64,000 nt of DNA. Origin: Escherichia phage pEC-M719-6WT.2. Shown in pieces: positions 2,910-62,120 of the stretch. A program made the position numbers and the translations under genes. Location: the sequence record OQ845958.1; one strand, 5' to 3'. The notes beneath the pieces were generated by a model. The model had not been told where the DNA came from and made no database searches. It saw nothing but the letters and a program-made list of their open reading frames with translations. Within the stretch, counting starts at the first letter, position 1. Each line of letters begins with the position of its first letter.

Positions 2910-3183
2910 TTTTGATACACAGAAAACTGAATCGCCTTCCGGGGCGATTAGTAAGCAGCAAAACGGGCTTGATATTGAAGCCATGGTTGAGTCAACTGAA
3001 ATGTCTTATCTGGAAGCTGCGACTGCCTGGTTGGAAGAACGTGGAATTCCTGAAGGCAATTTTGCACGATACATTCCTGCGGGAATCATTGATAAGATTA
3101 TGAATGAAGCATATGATGATAACCTGCTTCGCCCAAGTATGTCTCGTACACAGAAAACTAATACGCTGGACTTTTTGTTATGA
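2890..3183 (+). CDS. 33: late-transcription accessory protein gp33 (start taken at internal ATG; ORF-track frame begins 2797)
   Basis: Position between dsbA and 59 as in T4; N-terminal extension in the ORF track overlaps dsbA and is probably not translated. Confidence 0.55.
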   Translation: MMSSLVNFDTQKTESPSGAISKQQNGLDIEAMVESTEMSYLEAATAWLEERGIPEGNFARYIPAGIIDKIMNEAYDDNLLRPSMSRTQKTNTLDFLL

Positions 3184-14441: not shown

Positions 14442-14675
14442 ATGTTAAACTTAATTACAAATGACAGAGTTACAAAGGCATATGGTGACAGAAATGATGG
14501 AATCTATGTCTATAAGGGAGACCGCCGGATTGGTTTCATTACTGACCTAAAGGCCAAATTGTTAAAAGAACTGAAAGCTCAAACAAGTGATTCTGGGTTT
14601 AGAGCAAGAGCCAAAAAGAAAGATGAGCGCCTGGGTGCCAACTCTTTTGGTCCCCGGGGTTACAACCGCTACTAA
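14442..14675 (+). CDS. hypothetical protein; paralog of the N-terminal domain of the next gene
   Basis: 77 aa from internal ATG; YGDRNDGIYVYKGDRRIGFITDLKAKL parallels YGDRHDGIYVYKGTKKIGLMTDLRKKL in ORF 14689-15192. Confidence 0.5.
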   Translation: MLNLITNDRVTKAYGDRNDGIYVYKGDRRIGFITDLKAKLLKELKAQTSDSGFRARAKKKDERLGANSFGPRGYNRY

Positions 14676-37700: not shown

Positions 37701-37926
37701 AGAAATCTTCGTCTTCGTCGTCGTCCATATCCTCAAGCTCGGCGCGTTTACCGGCAAGAGCATCACGAACACTGATATCATCGGAATCTTTTAGTTCAGC
37801 TTCTTTGCTGCGTTTTTTATAATAGCCTTCCAACTCCTTCAGACCGTCCATGGTCTGACAGGAACCAATCTTAGCCATAAAGCCTTCAATTGATGCTTCG
37901 TACATAATTTCTTCGAAGGATTTCAT
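37699..37926 (-). CDS. UvsW.1-like small acidic protein
   Basis: 75 aa directly downstream (minus strand) of the uvsW region, as T4 uvsW.1; acidic C-terminus. No sequence memory to confirm. Confidence 0.5.
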   Translation of the reverse strand: MKSFEEIMYEASIEGFMAKIGSCQTMDGLKELEGYYKKRSKEAELKDSDDISVRDALAGKRAELEDMDDDEDEDF

Positions 37927-38621
37927 TATATTTCCACCTGTTTAATTAAATTTCTGATTTTATATAAAGAAAGCCCCGTTGCTACAGAAGCTTGCTTCAT
38001 CGAACCATATTCAATCCCGTTTAAAACCACTTTCTTAGCGGCAGGATTTTTGGATGGGTCTTTATAACGTTCTTTTGCTTTATCTGAAATTTTCTTTGAT
38101 GCTTCTGGTGTATGTGATTTACCATACATCCAATTACCTTCACCTTTATTTCTTTCAGATATAGCTTGACATTGTGCTTGAGAGTATTTATACGGATTCG
38201 CTTTCTTTGTCGCAGATATTTTATCGGCCCAAGTTATTTTGCGACCCTTCAATAATTGGCTCATATATTCTTTATGTTCTTCAGTATGGTGCTTACCATA
38301 AAAAGGATTACCTTCACCAGTTTGAAGAGCTGACATTTGCCTACGCTCCCATCCATACGATTTATTAAATTGTCGTTGATGTGTCCGAGAGCTCATACCC
38401 ATAGCAATGACGGCCTTTATAAGACCGTAATGATTAGGATGAATTTTGGCCAATAATTTATGTGCAATAAAATGTTCTTCCGGAGTAAGGTTGACTCTGT
38501 TTTCTTGTGTATCAGGTCCACCCATACATTCTGGAATAATATGGTGAGATTCCGTATATCCAATTGGTTTGGAAGCCTTTCGGCTCCCAATTAAATCATC
38601 ATATATTTTTTGATAATTCAA
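37926..38621 (-). CDS. free-standing HNH homing endonuclease (HNH + NUMOD3-like repeats + C-terminal HTH), apparent TTG start
   Basis: 231 aa; ESHHIIPECMGGPDTQENRVNLTPEEHFIAHK; two GEGNxxYGKxHTxExxKxxS repeats; C-terminal GIEYGSMKQASVATGLSLYKIRN. Start/stop overlap uvsW and uvsW.1. Confidence 0.8.
   Translation of the reverse strand: MNYQKIYDDLIGSRKASKPIGYTESHHIIPECMGGPDTQENRVNLTPEEHFIAHKLLAKIHPNHYGLIKAVIAMGMSSRTHQRQFNKSYGWERRQMSALQTGEGNPFYGKHHTEEHKEYMSQLLKGRKITWADKISATKKANPYKYSQAQCQAISERNKGEGNWMYGKSHTPEASKKISDKAKERYKDPSKNPAAKKVVLNGIEYGSMKQASVATGLSLYKIRNLIKQVEI
37930..37948. repeat. 19-bp direct repeat copy 1 (atttccacctgtttaatta), at the 3' end of the HNH gene
   Basis: Exact copy of the sequence at 38622-38640; encodes KQVEI on the minus strand. 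Confidence 0.85.
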
Positions 38622-40117
38622 ATTTCCACCTGTTTAATTACATAGTTAAACCGTTCATCAGCATATCTTTGTATACGTTCAAGGCCATGCTTTAGGGCAA
38701 AGTTCAAATGAACATATTTCTTTTTAGCATTTGCCGATTTAGGTTTAACACCCATATCGTCAACGATATCAAAAACGTTTGCTTGTGATTTGGATTCATG
38801 TTTTCGAAGCACGCGGCCAATTGTCTGGAGTACAATTACCTTTGACTTGACCGGGTGAGCGAAAATAATATGATGGAGGTTTTTAACGGAAATACCCGTC
38901 GAGAATACACCGTATGAAGCTACAACAATAATTCCTTTTCCATTCTCTGCCATGACCTTTAATGCATTACGAGTTTCGGTATCAACTTCCCCGGAAACAT
39001 AATACACTTTCTCATGACCAGCTTCCTTAAGCATTTCAAACATCGATTTGCCATGCTCGATATTCTTAAACATCAAAAAGACGTTTTCATCTTTTTTAGC
39101 AAGCTTGAGAGCAAGATTTGTTACCCATTTATTTCGGCGTGTAGCTTTTGTAATTACCTTAATTTCATCCTGATAAGTTTTACCTTTCATTTTAACGGTA
39201 AATTCATCAGGGTAACGAAGGAAAATACTATTTATTTTAAGGTCAGTAACCTGTCCATCTTCCATCAATTTAGATGTGGATACTGGTTTAAAGATATCAC
39301 CAAACAGACCCATATATTGCATAAGGTTGGCTTTGCCGTCACGGAGTGAACCTGACAAACCAAATTTAAACGTACAATTCGTAAGGCCTTCGATAACCGT
39401 CGAAATTGATTTACCTGTCGCCATATGACATTCGTCATTCATAAACTGGCCAAACTGTTCAAACCATTCTTTAGGTTGTTTTACAGCCGTCTGATAAGTC
39501 GATACATAAATCATCGCATCAGAATCGCGTTTGGTACCAGAACGAATACCCAGACAAGCTTCACGAGGGAACAGACGATAATCAACAAAGTCATTAATCA
39601 TCTGGTCAACGAGCGCAGTTGTAGGAACAAGGATAAGTACTTTGCCTTCATAGTTCTCGAGATAATATCGCGCCAGAAGCGCCTGGATGAGACTTTTACC
39701 TGCAGACGTAGGTAAGTTCAGAATCTTTCTTCTGTTGACCAGACCATCATATACGGCGTCAGATTGATACCAATGGGGAGTTATCTTGGTATTGCCTGAA
39801 TAGATTTCTTTTGACTCGACCCATTTGTCGAATTCTTCGCGAGAGATTTCTTCTTTCTCTGTGATTTGTGGGTCAATCCAGAATGAATAGCCAAACTGGT
39901 CAGCGAACTTTTTAATTTGATTAACCAAACCGTATGGTAATTTACGATTGTAATCCAGGAGGCGGATTCGTCCGTCCCAAACTCCCTGCTTGAATTTTGG
40001 ATTGAAGCGATAGTTTTCAGCTTCGAAGCTGAAGTAATCACGGAGTTCGTAGAAGATTCCATCTTCACATTCAACATGCACGTGACTAAAATTTAGAAAG
40101 TTGATTTTAATATCCAT
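38618..40117 (-). CDS. uvsW: UvsW ATP-dependent DNA/RNA helicase (start at internal ATG; ORF track extends to 40156)
   Basis: About 499 aa from MDIKINF; helicase motifs NLPTSAGKS, DECH, GLSGSLRDGKA; matches T4 UvsW from memory. The ORF-track start lies upstream of the late promoter. Confidence 0.95.
   Translation of the reverse strand: MDIKINFLNFSHVHVECEDGIFYELRDYFSFEAENYRFNPKFKQGVWDGRIRLLDYNRKLPYGLVNQIKKFADQFGYSFWIDPQITEKEEISREEFDKWVESKEIYSGNTKITPHWYQSDAVYDGLVNRRKILNLPTSAGKSLIQALLARYYLENYEGKVLILVPTTALVDQMINDFVDYRLFPREACLGIRSGTKRDSDAMIYVSTYQTAVKQPKEWFEQFGQFMNDECHMATGKSISTVIEGLTNCTFKFGLSGSLRDGKANLMQYMGLFGDIFKPVSTSKLMEDGQVTDLKINSIFLRYPDEFTVKMKGKTYQDEIKVITKATRRNKWVTNLALKLAKKDENVFLMFKNIEHGKSMFEMLKEAGHEKVYYVSGEVDTETRNALKVMAENGKGIIVVASYGVFSTGISVKNLHHIIFAHPVKSKVIVLQTIGRVLRKHESKSQANVFDIVDDMGVKPKSANAKKKYVHLNFALKHGLERIQRYADERFNYVIKQVEI
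38622..38640. repeat. 19-bp direct repeat copy 2 (atttccacctgtttaatta), at the 3' end of uvsW
   Basis: Exact copy; both uvsW and the HNH protein end in the peptide KQVEI followed by stop. Confidence 0.85.
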
Positions 40118-40144
40118 GATGATTCCAAGGTAATAAATATATCT

Positions 40145-40152
40145 ATATTTAT
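40145..40152 (-). promoter_or_regulatory. late promoter (TATAAATA on minus strand) for uvsW
   Basis: Forward TATTTATA about 28 nt upstream of the uvsW ATG. Confidence 0.5.
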
Positions 40153-40171
40153 ACACTAACCGAGGTTCATC

Positions 40172-57165: not shown

Positions 57166-57169
<4 letters not shown>

Positions 57170-58041
57170 AGTGGTACCCTATTTTTTCTTGGAGCTGGCG
57201 GTGCTGGGTCAACCGGTACAGGAATATCCTGCGAATATGTTTGAACAGATTCACCTTGCCAGTCTTCTTGGTCGACGTCTCGTGGAACGGCTTCCGAGTC
57301 AACAGATTCGAAATTGCCCTCTGGTGCAAGCTCTCTGGAATTTGCAAAGAAGTCAAGATAGATAGTACGGATTTCCCCGGCTACTTCCTTGACCGGTGGA
57401 TATAACCAACCGTTAACTTCGAACATAATGGACCATTCGAGTCTACGACGAGTCATTGCATCACCTTCAATTTGCTCATCCATAGCAATTGACTGCAATA
57501 CGATTCTTATATCACGTTCGAATGTAATTTCATTCGTGTAAAGTTCAGTGATGGTTGTATTAAAATGTGGCTGGAAGTAAGGCATGATTTGTTCGATAAT
57601 CTGGAACATATCATCTTGATGCCTTGTATATATTCCAAGCTCGAAAATCATTTTGACCGGCACAGGAGAATATTGAGATATCTGCTTGCGAGGGTCGTTA
57701 TTAGCAAATCGCGCTTGTGTGTGATTCTGGAGAGCCGTTTTATATTGCCCGTTATACATCAAGTCAACCATATGTAGGTTCATACGGGGCAATACGGTCT
57801 CGATTTTAGCCTTCTGAGCAGCACGTTCTTGTGGTGACATGTCAGGAGTCGGTGTATTCTGAATAGCGGTCCATTTTCCAAGCTGCATCATGAATTTTTC
57901 TTTTGAAGCATAAGAAATAGGGACCTTAATATATTTAAGTCCAGTGTCTTCTCTGGTTCTGGCCACTTGTACATGGGAAAATAAATCGCCCATTAAAACG
58001 ATATAGCGACGCAGAGACGAATTATAAAAATGCCCAAACAA
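57166..58041 (-). CDS. 15: tail sheath stabilizer / tail completion protein gp15
   Basis: 291 aa; MFGxFYNSSxRRY ... ITYASKE ... QPHFNTT match T4 gp15 from memory. Confidence 0.9.
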
Positions 58042-58084
58042 AGTAACCTCCAGGCGCCCAGTTCGGGCGCATTAATAAATGTAT

Positions 58085-58873
58085 TTATTCATCAAAGAAA
58101 CTATCGTCAAAGCTATCCTGTTTTGCCTTCGGAGGAGCCTCAAGTCCACGACCATTCTGCACAAAATATGGTTTAACATATTCAGCTGCTTCTGCGTTAA
58201 TCTCATTGGATTCAGCATAAGGGATATTGCTGATATCTGTAAGACCATCGATATTGTGGATTGGTTGTAAATCGAGCTCACTGAATTCTGGAATATTAAT
58301 ACCTTCATTCCGTTGCAATTCGGGTTTAAGCTCTTCTCCGGAGTAAATGTATTTGCTCGCAGTGATTTTACGGATAGCATTTTGACCTACCTGATAGAAT
58401 GGGTCATAAGGTTGCACCCATGTAATTTCGAACAGGCTGTTATCAAGAGGGAAATAAATCAAATCCCCGGCAATAGGTTCAGTTCCATTGCATTGGTGTT
58501 TAAACAGGTTAGGGTTAATCGATATTGTAATTTCATCGTTCACAGTCATACCGAATTTACTAAAGATAGAACCATCACCCTGATATGCATCGAACGTATC
58601 CAGATATCCAGCAAATTTCCATGCTTTATCAAATTTACTCTGGAGGTCTTCACCAAATAACAAATCCGGTTTAACGAATTGCCTTGGGATATAATAAAGA
58701 GACATTCCGCGCATCTGAATACTTTCAGCAACAATAGCATCTGCTAAAGTCTGGGTATTTTCATGATGCATAAAGTTTACATATTGGTTGAGTATCTCTG
58801 ACGAGTTTGTATTGTCATACCCGGTTCCATCTTCGAGCCGAGCGAATAAGCTTGCATCATAAGAATTACGCAT
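58085..58873 (-). CDS. 14: neck protein gp14
   Basis: 262 aa (T4 gp14 about 256); synteny 13-14-15. Confidence 0.8.
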
Positions 58874-59501
58874 AATTCCATAATTTCCATTTTTCGGCTG
58901 TACTTTTACATCTGTAAATGACCGTCGCCGGTGTTATCGAATAATATTCTGCACATTTTCTTCCGGTACAAAATTCTAGGTCGCCGGTAATAATTTTACG
59001 CGCGGCCGGATTTTTATCATCAGAAAAATCTGGATGTCTGTCCTTAAAATCAATCCACATTCGAGCTGTTGATTCTTTACGACGTTTTAATCCTTCTTCT
59101 GACCATTCCCTTTGTTTTGCTGCGTCTGACATTCGTTTTCTTGATTCTGCTGTTCTCTTTTTACCAAAGGCAGGGGAATCTTCTGGACAACTATAACCTT
59201 CTGGTCCGCCTCCCCCTGTTGGATGTAAATTTGCACAATTATCGAAACTTTCTAAAAGCTCACTGACTAGTAAGGCTTCGGCTTCTTTTAATAGGGCAGG
59301 CGATTCAAAAGGTTTAGACCATGTAATGTCGACTAAACATTTCCTTCCGTATTTTTGTTTAGCTCGCTTGACAATAGTACCAGAACCGAAATAACTATCC
59401 GCTTTAGAATCTTCATAATGTGAATGGCGTTTACCGCCATATACCATTATCCCATTAGATGTTTCAAATGTTGATACATAAAGTCTATAGTATGTAGTCA
59501 T
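58866..59501 (-). CDS. free-standing GIY-YIG-type (seg/I-TevI-like) homing endonuclease candidate
   Basis: 211 aa filling the 13/14 gap; degenerate N-terminal GIY-YIG-like motif (YRLYV ... IMVYGGKR); C-terminal [32 protein letters not shown] resembles the I-TevI DNA-binding domain. Confidence 0.5.
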
Positions 59502-59504
59502 TAA

Positions 59505-60443
59505 TCACCCAATTAGTATTCCAGCTGGTGCATCCAGCAGGTCAAGTTCTTCGCGGAGACGTTCTTTTTCCATACGAGCTTCTTCAATTAAACGAACACC
59601 ATCAACCGTGGTACCACCTGGCATCATCATCCCCTGGTGTTTAGCCAATACGTTGCCGTTAACTTCCTTAACGAGCGCTGTGGCATAGTCTTTCACCCAA
59701 CGGTTGTTATATGCACCATCTTGAAGTCCAAGGTCCTCACCAGCTCTCATACCGCTTATTCTGCGCGCTGGGTTATCCCACTGTGCGCCTGCATTCCACG
59801 GATTATCACAATCAGCCGAAGCAAAACCATAGCCAGCTGTATTGCCTACCATTGAATCCACACCGTTATATGATTTGGTAAAAACTTCAATTACAATCAC
59901 ATCTCCCTGGCGGAAGTTGCCCATAATTTTAAGTTGTTCGGTATCGTCATTATACCAGTAATCTGGCAGCGGAACCATCAGGTCTTGCATCATTGAACGG
60001 TATTGCATAAGCTGTGTAAAATAACCAAGGTCTGCACCAAAAGCATTTGGACCAAAGCTGTTACATGAGCTACCCATTCCACCGTTAATCCCGGCCAGTC
60101 CCAGAACAAAATCTGTGAACCATGGATATGTAGCTTGACCATCCATCGAAGTTAATGAACCGACGTTAGTACGAATAATCTGCGTTACTGCAAAAATATT
60201 ACGGCCTTTTAAATCGAAAACACCATCGCGAAATTTCTGTTGTGAAACGTCATCATGACCGATATAAAAAGCCTGATAACCTTTGTTATAACCATTATAA
60301 TGATATTCACCATATAATTCTAATGCACGCTGGATGCAATCATAGACCTGTTCGGTCGTAACTTCGATATTCGTAATTGGAGCACCAAGACGTCGAAGGA
60401 TTGCATCTTTTAATTGTTTCGGGTTGTATGATTCAGTTGCCAT
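59505..60443 (-). CDS. 13: neck protein gp13
   Basis: 312 aa (T4 gp13 about 309); N-terminus [15 protein letters not shown] ... [16 protein letters not shown] matches T4 from memory; late promoter upstream. Confidence 0.9.
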
Positions 60444-60460
60444 ATGTTTTCCTCTTTACT

Positions 60461-60468
60461 GTATTTAT
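60461..60468 (-). promoter_or_regulatory. late promoter (TATAAATA on minus strand) for gene 13
   Basis: Forward TATTTATA about 20 nt upstream of the gp13 ATG with AAAGAGGAAAAC ribosome-binding site. Confidence 0.55.
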
Positions 60469-60473
60469 ACGAA

Positions 60474-60498
60474 AAAAGGGCCGAAGCCCTTTTGTTAT
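60474..60498. terminator. intrinsic terminator after wac (GGGC-UUCG-GCCC), potentially bidirectional
   Basis: aaaaagggccgaagcccttttgtt immediately downstream of the wac stop on the minus strand. Confidence 0.6.
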
Positions 60499-62120
60499 GG
60501 TCCAACAGTCACGAATGTAGACAAAAGAACCCATGCATTATCAACGAGCACATAAGGGAGACCATCAGCTGCAGGAGCGACAGGAGGCCTTTTGGCGAGC
60601 TCTGTTTCTAAGGCTGATACTTTACCTTCTAAAGTAGTTATCTTCGCCTCGGCCGCATCCAGGCGACCAGGGAGCGGAGTTACTGTACCTTCAAGGGTTG
60701 TCACGCGAGTGGTTAATGGTGCAATTTTTGCAGTATCGAGTTTAATTGCATCAATCTCGGTTCTGGTATCGATAATTTCAGTCCAGTTTCCTTGCTTGCG
60801 ACCATATAACTTATTGTCCAATGGTGCGTCGTTCAGCTTGGATGCCATCAGCATATCCAAGTTAATTACAACCGGAAGAACACCACGTTCAGCCACAGTA
60901 GCACCGTTAGGGTTTGTACCATTCATCTGGCTAGTTAAAGTCAAAATAGAGCCTTTCATACCAGTGTTATTTGTACCGATTTCGGCCTGTACATCCTGAA
61001 GGCCTGATGCAGTTTCGTTAGCCAGTGTAGTGGTCGCATTCAACTTATACGTGATAGTGTTTGGCTCCGGAGATTGCTCTGTACCGATTCTCTGAGAAAG
61101 CCATGCAGTGGTACCACGTAAACCAGAGCTTGAATCCTGGCCAACAACAACCTGTAAGCCATTAACATCCGAGCGCAAAGCACTGATTCGACCATTAATT
61201 GTTAATGGTTCCAGAGCGGTGCCGATATCAGCTTCAACCTTAGCAAGTCTTGGTTTGATATCCGCAATATCTGTTTCATTGACCGAAACACGTCCACCAA
61301 GATTTTCAACGCGAGTTGTAATTGCAAGTCCGTTACCAAAACCAATAGCTTCTTGAATGTTGACAATATCTTCGTCAATTTCGACTACTTTGTCGTCAAG
61401 AGTATTCAGTCGAACAAATACAGTCGGTTTACCTGTTGCTAAAGTAGACTCACCTAATTCTTCGCGAATTTTAATTACTTTTATGTTAAGAGAACCAACA
61501 TCAGAATCATGATAGTTATCTTCAAGAGTCTTAATACGAACTCCATGAGCAACAATAGCCGAACTGTTATCGATGATGCGGCGTTTCATGCCTTTTGACG
61601 GATTGCCGATAACCTGGAGACCATTTATATCTTGGTCAACATACTGGCCTAATTCATTTTTAATCCATACGAGGTCATTACGAACTGTGCGATAATATGA
61701 ATCGGTTAACGGGTCATAAACGCCAACATCTTCTTTTAACTTTTTAAGGTCTTCAGATGTTTCGCTTGATAATAATTCGGTATTAAATTGACGTTCATCA
61801 AGGTCAAGAATATCCGTACGGTTTTTTTCAATTTGTTTAACAACTTCCGTGTTAGTTGTTATATTCAAAGCTTCCTGAATATTATTGACGTTATCAATAA
61901 TTTCGTTTATTTTTTCTTTAGATGCATTTGAGTTGTCGTCGAGTGTATCTACGTTTGTTTGAACGCCAACTGCAGCGGCGTTCAAATTACCATCATGACC
62001 ATATTTGGTACTGGCCGCAGTCATACAATCGCCGTTTTGTATCCAACGAATTCTCTGTTGACCTTCGTCTGGAATACCGATGCTATACGGCAGTTCTTTG
62101 AGACTGAGTTTATTAATCAT
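60495..62120 (-). CDS. wac: fibritin (whisker/neck fibre) with C-terminal foldon (start at internal ATG; ORF track extends to 62171)
   Basis: About 541 aa; N-terminus LPYSIGIPDEGQQRIRWIQNG and C-terminal foldon-like PYVLVDNAWVLLSTF parallel T4 fibritin from memory. Confidence 0.9.
   Translation of the reverse strand: MINKLSLKELPYSIGIPDEGQQRIRWIQNGDCMTAASTKYGHDGNLNAAAVGVQTNVDTLDDNSNASKEKINEIIDNVNNIQEALNITTNTEVVKQIEKNRTDILDLDERQFNTELLSSETSEDLKKLKEDVGVYDPLTDSYYRTVRNDLVWIKNELGQYVDQDINGLQVIGNPSKGMKRRIIDNSSAIVAHGVRIKTLEDNYHDSDVGSLNIKVIKIREELGESTLATGKPTVFVRLNTLDDKVVEIDEDIVNIQEAIGFGNGLAITTRVENLGGRVSVNETDIADIKPRLAKVEADIGTALEPLTINGRISALRSDVNGLQVVVGQDSSSGLRGTTAWLSQRIGTEQSPEPNTITYKLNATTTLANETASGLQDVQAEIGTNNTGMKGSILTLTSQMNGTNPNGATVAERGVLPVVINLDMLMASKLNDAPLDNKLYGRKQGNWTEIIDTRTEIDAIKLDTAKIAPLTTRVTTLEGTVTPLPGRLDAAEAKITTLEGKVSALETELAKRPPVAPAADGLPYVLVDNAWVLLSTFVTVGP

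Follow-up and report, generated by a model that had tools for sequence, protein, structure and literature searches.

A Seg-type free-standing homing endonuclease gene, probably mobile, at the junction of neck genes 13 and 14 in a Gaprivervirus genome

In phage T4 the neck genes 13 and 14 are adjacent, with gene 13 ending at locus position 14554 of the T4 record and gene 14 starting at position 14556, 1 nt apart and with nothing inserted. At the same locus of Escherichia phage pEC-M719-6WT.2 (OQ845958.1) the two genes are separated by an additional reading frame, which raises the question of what this gene is and how it came to lie there. We analyzed a stretch of 64,000 nucleotides from this phage (the window), in which all the features located below lie on the minus strand. 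The additional gene (58866 to 59501) has an ATG start and encodes 211 amino acids plus a stop. It is flanked upstream by gene 13 (59505 to 60443, 312 amino acids), a neck protein and head-tail adaptor identified by its match to PHROG 211 (head-tail adaptor; E 7e-42) and by the annotations of relatives, and downstream by gene 14 (58085 to 58873, 262 amino acids), a neck protein involved in head closure with a strong match to Pfam T4_neck-protein (E 2.3e-102). Three nucleotides (59502 to 59504) separate the gp13 stop from the start of the inserted frame, and the end of the inserted frame overlaps the gp14 start by 8 nt (58866 to 58873). A first-pass annotation had proposed that a GIY-YIG or I-TevI-like endonuclease gene fills the gap between two genes that adjoin in T4; its 211-amino-acid length, 3-nt gap and 8-nt overlap agree exactly with the list of open reading frames, and the 1-nt spacing in the T4 record bears out the adjacency.

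The gene belongs to a well-sampled group of phages. Over a 2.5-kb region, identity is 98.4% to Yersinia phage vB_YenM_P8 and 93 to 98% to other Gaprivervirus members (SP18, VR7, VR20, VR25, VR26, RZ, and others), and on this similarity the window is assigned to Gaprivervirus, within the SP18/VR7 group. The endonuclease gene is already in the databases, since it is annotated in SP18, RZ, P8, and VR26: the window protein is 100% identical to an ORF (gp176) of Shigella phage SP18 annotated as "segC: homing endonuclease," and the annotated endonucleases of RZ and P8 ("homing endonuclease") and of VR26 (VR26_173) are 96 to 99.5% identical to it. Homologues have been labeled variously as segC, putative endonuclease, group I intron endonuclease, and hypothetical protein. 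We rejected the orthology with T4 segC implied by the label in SP18, Phi1, and VR26, as both locus and architecture differ; T4 segC lies between genes 5.1 and 5.3 and encodes a protein of 140 amino acids that lacks a DNA-binding tail and is ∼30% identical over 126 amino acids. Judged by these features, the name "segC" in the relatives is a best-hit label, not a statement of orthology. A search of the searchable literature found no experimental study, and no cleavage or inheritance data, on any Seg enzyme of the 13/14 site, and the sole mention of such an enzyme that we found is that of the phi1 "segC," which is absent from RB49 (Arbiol et al., PMC2839356).

The endonuclease frame is not a chance ORF, as PHROG 314 ("homing endonuclease") covers residues 1 to 210 of its product (E 1.8e-29) and its dN/dS ratio relative to the VR26 copy is 0.049 (dS 0.36). 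Searched on its own, the window protein gave weak, subthreshold matches to Pfam NUMOD3 (E 0.01) and, over residues 107 to 208, to TIGR01453 "group I intron endonuclease" (E 0.0024). It fell below the Pfam I-TevI_DNA-bd model (PF20987), had no match at E up to 1 to the Pfam models GIY-YIG (PF01541) and SegE_GIY-YIG (PF19835), and had no match in the PDB when used as a single query in phmmer. A word-indexed protein search returned 9 homologues with 52 to 99% identity, 8 of which were aligned with the window protein. NUMOD3 matched all 9 members of this alignment, the window protein included (best E 3.9e-4), PF20987 matched 8 of the 9 (best E 1.6e-10), and the profile built from the alignment matched the crystal structure of the I-TevI DNA-binding domain in the PDB (1i3j_A; E 2.5e-5; residues 146 to 206). 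When the family profile was compared with T4 proteins in hhalign, it matched SegC (96.8% probability), SegD (96.7%), SegE (91.9%), and I-TevI (91.7%), with the SegD alignment extending through the C-terminal DNA-binding part. In the reverse direction, the endonuclease ORF was the sole match in the window to T4 SegC, SegD, and SegE in tblastn (E 6e-8, 2e-5, and 8e-6, respectively).

Together these comparisons outline a protein of three parts. The C-terminal portion (approximately residues 152 to 211; 58869 to 59048) is a predicted I-TevI-type DNA-binding domain with a helix-turn-helix, supported by the profile, PF20987, hhalign, and TIGR01453. It is preceded by a NUMOD3-like linker motif (residues 109 to 125; 59127 to 59177, matched by Pfam NUMOD3), which follows a glycine-rich, low-confidence hinge. 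We found no CxxC...CxxC zinc-finger motif in the linker sequence, and the zinc-finger segment of I-TevI was left unaligned by hhalign. The N-terminal portion (approximately residues 1 to 95; 59217 to 59501) is a putative GIY-YIG catalytic domain in which the motif letters are degenerate, reading RLY...VYG in place of GIY...YIG. The motif tyrosines are Y8 (R-L-Y) and Y21 (V-Y-G-G), spaced by 12 residues versus 10 in I-TevI. The hhalign match to I-TevI begins at residue 42 and pairs E75 of the window protein with E75 of I-TevI and N91 with N90. Candidates for the equivalent of I-TevI Arg27 are K24, R25, and H26, of which K24 is invariant and the other two are mostly conserved among close homologues.

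An exhaustive profile search recovered 7,156 relatives at E up to 0.001, and 41 diverse ones were aligned. Y8, Y21, G23, G39, E75, N91, and G96 are invariant in all 41, eight of which match SegE_GIY-YIG (PF19835) and three GIY-YIG (PF01541). By motif and alignment, Y8, Y21, E75, and N91 correspond to the GIY tyrosine, the YIG tyrosine, the catalytic glutamate, and the asparagine of the GIY-YIG superfamily. The structure model of the protein is moderately confident (pLDDT 75.9, pTM 0.42), with pLDDT below 50 at residues 94 to 106 in the hinge, and its catalytic domain is predicted to fold as a three-stranded antiparallel sheet flanked by helices, as in I-TevI (1LN0) and UvrC (1YCZ). Because the window protein itself falls below the Pfam GIY-YIG models, its membership in the superfamily rests on fold, transitive homology, and motifs. 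The degenerate N-terminal motif and the I-TevI-like C terminus described in the first-pass annotation are therefore both upheld, the former by the four invariant motif residues and the alignment to Seg proteins and I-TevI, and the latter by the family profile, the PF20987 matches, and the weak NUMOD3 signal; of the HMM comparisons it proposed, that for the DNA-binding domain succeeded with the family profile and homologues, whereas that for Pfam GIY-YIG on the window protein itself did not.

The nearest known systems are the Seg proteins and I-TevI. T4 SegA to SegG are free-standing GIY-YIG homing endonucleases responsible for "intronless homing" and marker exclusion, and I-TevI is the endonuclease of the T4 td intron. 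The window protein resembles the Seg proteins, especially SegD and SegE, in a homologous N-terminal domain and in the Seg-typical Y-G-S-G and K-Y-G motifs, and its gene, like theirs, is free-standing between two phage genes, promoter-less, overlapping a neighboring ORF, and polymorphic among close relatives. It differs from them in genomic site, as T4 has no seg gene at 13/14, and it has no similarity to SegG, for which hhalign against the family profile indicated no relationship (0.1% probability). The resemblance to I-TevI lies in the GIY-YIG domain, the long flexible linker with a NUMOD3-type element, the C-terminal helix-turn-helix, and the conserved equivalents of E75 and N90. Unlike I-TevI, the window endonuclease is not intron encoded, has no zinc finger in its linker, carries the degenerate RLY/VYG motif, and has a D-x-Y-x-G-S-G loop in place of helix 1 with its Arg27 region. 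Relative to the annotated Gaprivervirus genes (SP18, VR26, RZ, and P8) and to the homologues at the 13/14 site, the window copy shows no real difference. We conclude that the gene is typical of the free-standing Seg-type homing endonucleases, a familiar class, and that it has already been annotated in sister phages.

The distribution of the gene within the genus allows its boundaries to be drawn. Among 32 Gaprivervirus records the endonuclease gene is present in 8 (5 phages) and missing from 24 (21 phages), and hence is not a constant feature of this locus in relatives; the 24 insert-free records align to the window in two pieces, with exactly the endonuclease segment missing. The insert-free junction reads ...GGTGGGCTAATGGCTAC[A/T]TATGAC..., so that gp13 stop and gene 14 start share nucleotides (TAATG), and the gp14 N terminus is MATYD, as in T4. 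The T4 junction is compact too, but reads taa-T-ATG where the insert-free Gapriverviruses overlap. In carriers the endonuclease ORF starts ATG[A/G]CTAC[A/T]TA[C/T]-TATAGA (M-T/A-T-Y-Y-R-L-Y), and in VR26 its ATG retains the TAATG overlap with the native gp13 stop. The endonuclease of Tequatrovirus F2 starts with MATY, like T4 gp14. Junction alignment suggests that the start of the window ORF, ATGACTACATAC (59490 to 59501), was once the start of the ancestral gene 14 with its first four codons, which read ATGGCTACATAT in phages without the insert. Most parsimoniously, the insertion point follows codon 4 of the ancestral gene 14, in which case the endonuclease ORF would take its ribosome-binding site, its start codon, and its initial four codons from gene 14. 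The insertion first described as exactly intergenic thus does interrupt an otherwise contiguous 13/14 junction, but its site appears to fall just inside gene 14.

At its other end the insert supplies gene 14 with a new beginning. It terminates in ...TGGAATTATGCGTAATTCTTAT immediately before GAT, a stretch that encodes both the endonuclease C terminus (WNYA and stop) and, in another frame, the gp14 start (MRNSY-D...). Junction alignments define this replacement start, ATGCGTAATTCTTAT (58859 to 58873), as part of the 3' end of the insert, and the N terminus of gp14 in the window is accordingly altered, reading MRNSYD versus MATYD. The same arrangement, an overlap of 8 or 14 nt with the gp14 start at a W-N-Y codon run, is found at 7 of 7 insert-bearing loci from five genera. 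The insert itself is 631 nt long in VR26 and 635 nt in the window type. This junction anatomy, in which the gene 14 start is taken over and replaced by an out-of-frame one, is a modestly new element of the analysis.

Carriers and noncarriers also differ in the sequences bordering the insert. In a 3.4-kb alignment from the 3' end of wac to gene 15 (5 carriers and 4 noncarriers), all 12 of the fixed differences between the groups fall at 58784 to 58856, in approximately the first 90 nt of gene 14, a variant tract of ∼75 nt linked perfectly to the presence of the endonuclease gene. With VR26 left out, 9 further fixed differences appear at 59504 to 59525, in the last seven codons of gene 13, where carriers other than VR26 share a second linked tract (PAGILIG-stop versus PTPILVG-stop). 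Over the rest of the 3.4 kb, divergence between the groups equals that within them. A 126-nt query from the gene 14 tract separated all 32 records, the 8 carriers being 96.8 to 100% identical to it and the 24 noncarriers 86 to 88%. A search of the phage collection found no donor for this tract; after the insert-free Gapriverviruses, the best matches reached only 74 to 79% (Acinetobacter, Providencia, and Morganella phages). We read the gene 14 tract as a possible co-conversion tract, a self-protecting target polymorphism, or both. A homing endonuclease gene that moves together with short co-converted flanks, or whose carrier allele bears protective changes in the target, would be expected to leave such a pattern.

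Expression of the gene probably depends on its neighbors. A motif scan located one T4-type late promoter motif, TATAAATA, at 60462 to 60469, 18 nt upstream of the gene 13 start, which we take, on established T4 biology, to be a late promoter. Motifs of this type have 20 matches in the window versus 4 expected, with none between 55366 and 60461, and the one at 60462 to 60469 is the only late promoter motif upstream of the endonuclease gene in the operon. None was found within or just before the insert, and a scan for sigma-70 promoters and intrinsic terminators yielded only chance-level results. With a single late motif upstream of gene 13 and none in the insert, the endonuclease gene has the appearance of a cassette that lacks a promoter and is carried on the late transcript of genes 13, 14, and 15. 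A search for regulatory RNA hairpins where the endonuclease and gp14 frames begin gave fold energies no better than those of shuffled sequences (z scores of -1.2 and -0.45). An imperfect palindrome, GGAATTA-TGCG-TAATTC, spans the gp14 AUG; it is small and not significant. Free-standing seg genes are often promoter-less cassettes in existing operons that overlap neighboring ORFs, a situation described for several seg and mob genes of T4 (PMC2988022).

Homologues at the 13/14 junction are not confined to Gaprivervirus and were also found in Tequatrovirus (F2), Dhakavirus (MX01), Slopekvirus (phT4A and Klebsiella phage Prick1), and Krischvirus (Phi1 and G5211), and in most of 66 tblastn-positive phage records a neck gene lay under or beside the match. 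Identity to the window protein is 96 to 100% within the genus and 28 to 60% in the four other genera at the same junction. The relationships among these enzymes are discordant with those of the phages that carry them: Phi1 and G5211 are 98.4% identical in gp13 and 89.5% in gp14, with endonucleases only 27.6% identical, phT4A and Prick1 share 99.0%, 98.8%, and 73.5% identity in gp13, gp14, and endonuclease, respectively, and the window and MX01 share 88.5%, 74.0%, and 56.9%. Because endonuclease similarity does not follow phage similarity, repeated horizontal invasion of one site, or replacement there, is favored over vertical descent accompanied by losses. This evidence for 13/14 as a recurrent homing site in five genera is, with the junction anatomy, what is modestly new here. 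The gene is nonetheless under purifying selection: all 11 endonuclease copies examined are intact ORFs, and dN/dS between genera is 0.17 to 0.33. The synonymous divergence of the window and VR26 copies (dS 0.36) indicates that the gene has long been resident in the genus.

Taken as a whole, we consider it probable, at roughly 0.85, that the segment from 58866 to 59501 is a mobile free-standing ("intronless") homing endonuclease gene of the T4 Seg type that would cleave gene-less relatives and bias its own inheritance. Support computed here comes from the domain identities, the conservation of catalytic residues, purifying selection, the precise presence or absence of the gene, the linked flanks, the occurrence in five genera, and the discordant relationships. 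That the enzyme cleaves DNA, where it would cut, and that it biases inheritance are inferred by analogy with the homing of SegB, SegE, SegF, SegG, and I-TevI (PMC2988022, PMC2330249). We hypothesize that the late promoter upstream of gene 13 would drive cotranscription of the endonuclease gene with genes 13 and 14, and that translation of the endonuclease would begin at the former gene 14 initiation site. In a mixed infection with a gene-less relative, the C-terminal domain would bind the insert-free 13/14 region, and the tethered nuclease domain would introduce a double-strand break nearby. Recombination of the T4 type would repair the break with the endonuclease-bearing genome as template, copying the gene and short flanks in genes 13 and 14 into the recipient. 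Carriers may protect themselves by the interrupted junction, by the linked changes in approximately the first 90 nt of gene 14, or by both.

Some of these features could also be those of a decayed or domesticated endonuclease that no longer cuts DNA and is kept for gp14 synthesis, or whose DNA-binding domain now serves a regulatory function; I-TevI itself acts as an autorepressor. The gp14 start lies within the last codons of the endonuclease gene, which itself sits on the original gene 14 initiation site, so that a simple deletion would damage gene 14. The missing Pfam GIY-YIG match of the window protein, the lack of a residue matched to I-TevI Arg27, and the long residence in the genus would fit this view as well. 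We consider it unlikely, given that the equivalents of the GIY tyrosine, YIG tyrosine, Glu75, and Asn90 are invariant across the 41 relatives and that the whole ORF is under purifying selection, which would be unexpected if only its 3' end mattered. Moreover, 21 sister phages thrive without the gene, and the finding of very different endonuclease lineages at the same site in nearly identical phages points to ongoing invasion.

Ancestral presence followed by deletion in most phages would attribute the present distribution to loss and not to mobility, and could account for the shared position in five genera and for the divergence of the window and VR26 copies (92.6% nucleotide identity), which is close to that of the flanking genes. 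We regard this as very improbable: insert-free genomes share a compact TAATG-type junction and the MATYD N terminus of gp14 with T4, which independent deletions would not restore exactly, the endonucleases are 28% and 73.5% identical in phages whose gp13 proteins are 98% (Krischvirus) and 99% (Slopekvirus) identical, and the flanking tracts linked to the insert have the short length and sharp limits that gene conversion would produce. The remaining candidate, an endonuclease encoded by a group I intron in the manner of I-TevI, is suggested by the weak TIGR01453 match (E 0.0024) and by the annotation of the G5211 homologue as a "putative group I intron endonuclease." We rejected it as scarcely credible, as no intron or other RNA family in Rfam matched positions 57500 to 61000 at E up to 1, the RNA around either junction folded no better than shuffled sequence, and two complete, separate genes bound the ORF so closely that there is no room for a ribozyme.

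Beyond the mobile Seg-type gene itself, a broader picture can be offered tentatively. The 13/14 junction is possibly a homing hot spot across the Straboviridae, reinvaded by divergent Seg lineages, at which the gene may be hard to lose, having taken over the gene 14 start and supplied the N terminus of gp14 in another frame; the synthesis of an essential neck protein would then be coupled to the translation of a selfish gene. The changes at 58784 to 58808 might in that case mark a remote cleavage site ∼60 to 80 nt from the insertion point.

The gene leaves the current understanding of these elements unchanged, and adds one more Seg-type enzyme to those known. For annotation, the "segC" label in relatives is misleading. 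The tidy natural set of carrier and noncarrier genomes would make target-site mapping easy, and in phage engineering or in phage cocktails a carrier phage may convert or outcompete coinfecting relatives at 13/14. Free-standing homing endonuclease genes rank among the main causes of mosaicism and marker exclusion in T-even phages, and one that lies inside the essential late neck operon would, in mixed infections, skew which short segments of genes 13 and 14 are inherited.

Among the Gaprivervirus phages that carry the Seg-type GIY-YIG endonuclease gene between genes 13 and 14, VR26 has a record in which an internal start is used, giving a protein of 194 aa and leaving a 53-nt "gap" at positions 2949-3001 of its locus (L006). 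The full 211-codon ORF is intact in VR26, beginning at a TAATG overlap with the gene for the neck protein gp13, and the shorter form probably reflects a mistake in the annotation of that record. Gaprivervirus records also disagree on where gene 15 begins: gp15 is given as 291 aa in VR7, VR20, and VR26 and as 276 aa in SP18, P8, and RZ; the mechanical ORF in the window (57166-58041, minus strand) begins at a TTG and encodes 291 aa.

At the other end of the endonuclease gene, its stop codon and the gp14 AUG are both covered by an imperfect palindrome, GGAATTA-TGCG-TAATTC (window 58857-58880, minus strand). This palindrome could fold into a small hairpin that covers the start of gp14, but the 91-nt region around it had a fold energy no better than that of shuffled sequence.

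The window also encodes a second free-standing homing endonuclease, a MobE-like ORF of 231 aa at 37926-38621 (minus strand), with an N-terminus that is 56% identical to T4 MobE of the HNH family (tblastn, E value of 5e-24) and a C-terminus (KNPAAKKVVLNGIEYGS...) that resembles the I-TevI-type DNA-binding tail of the 13/14 endonuclease. This gene follows, with a 4-nt overlap, a 512-aa UvsW-like helicase ORF (38618-40156, minus strand), and the two proteins share their last six residues, IKQVEI*, as if the helicase gene's 3' end had been duplicated or restored by the MobE-like insertion.

In the Krischvirus Phi1, a 66-nt spacer (positions 1429-1494 of its locus, L015) separates gp13 from the endonuclease gene labeled "segC," a feature of the Phi1-type endonuclease in which other lineages differ. 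The spacer contains a strong ribosome-binding site, AAGGAG, and an inverted repeat (ATGTTCTCGT...ACGAGAACAT), and it may represent a regulatory hairpin or terminator 5' of the endonuclease gene. Phi1 and G5211 are near-identical phages, with gp13 proteins sharing 98.4% identity, and the endonucleases that they carry at this same junction share just 27.6%. Because gp14 identity between them falls to 89.5%, the comparison suggests that co-conversion with each endonuclease lineage involved a different stretch of gene 14.
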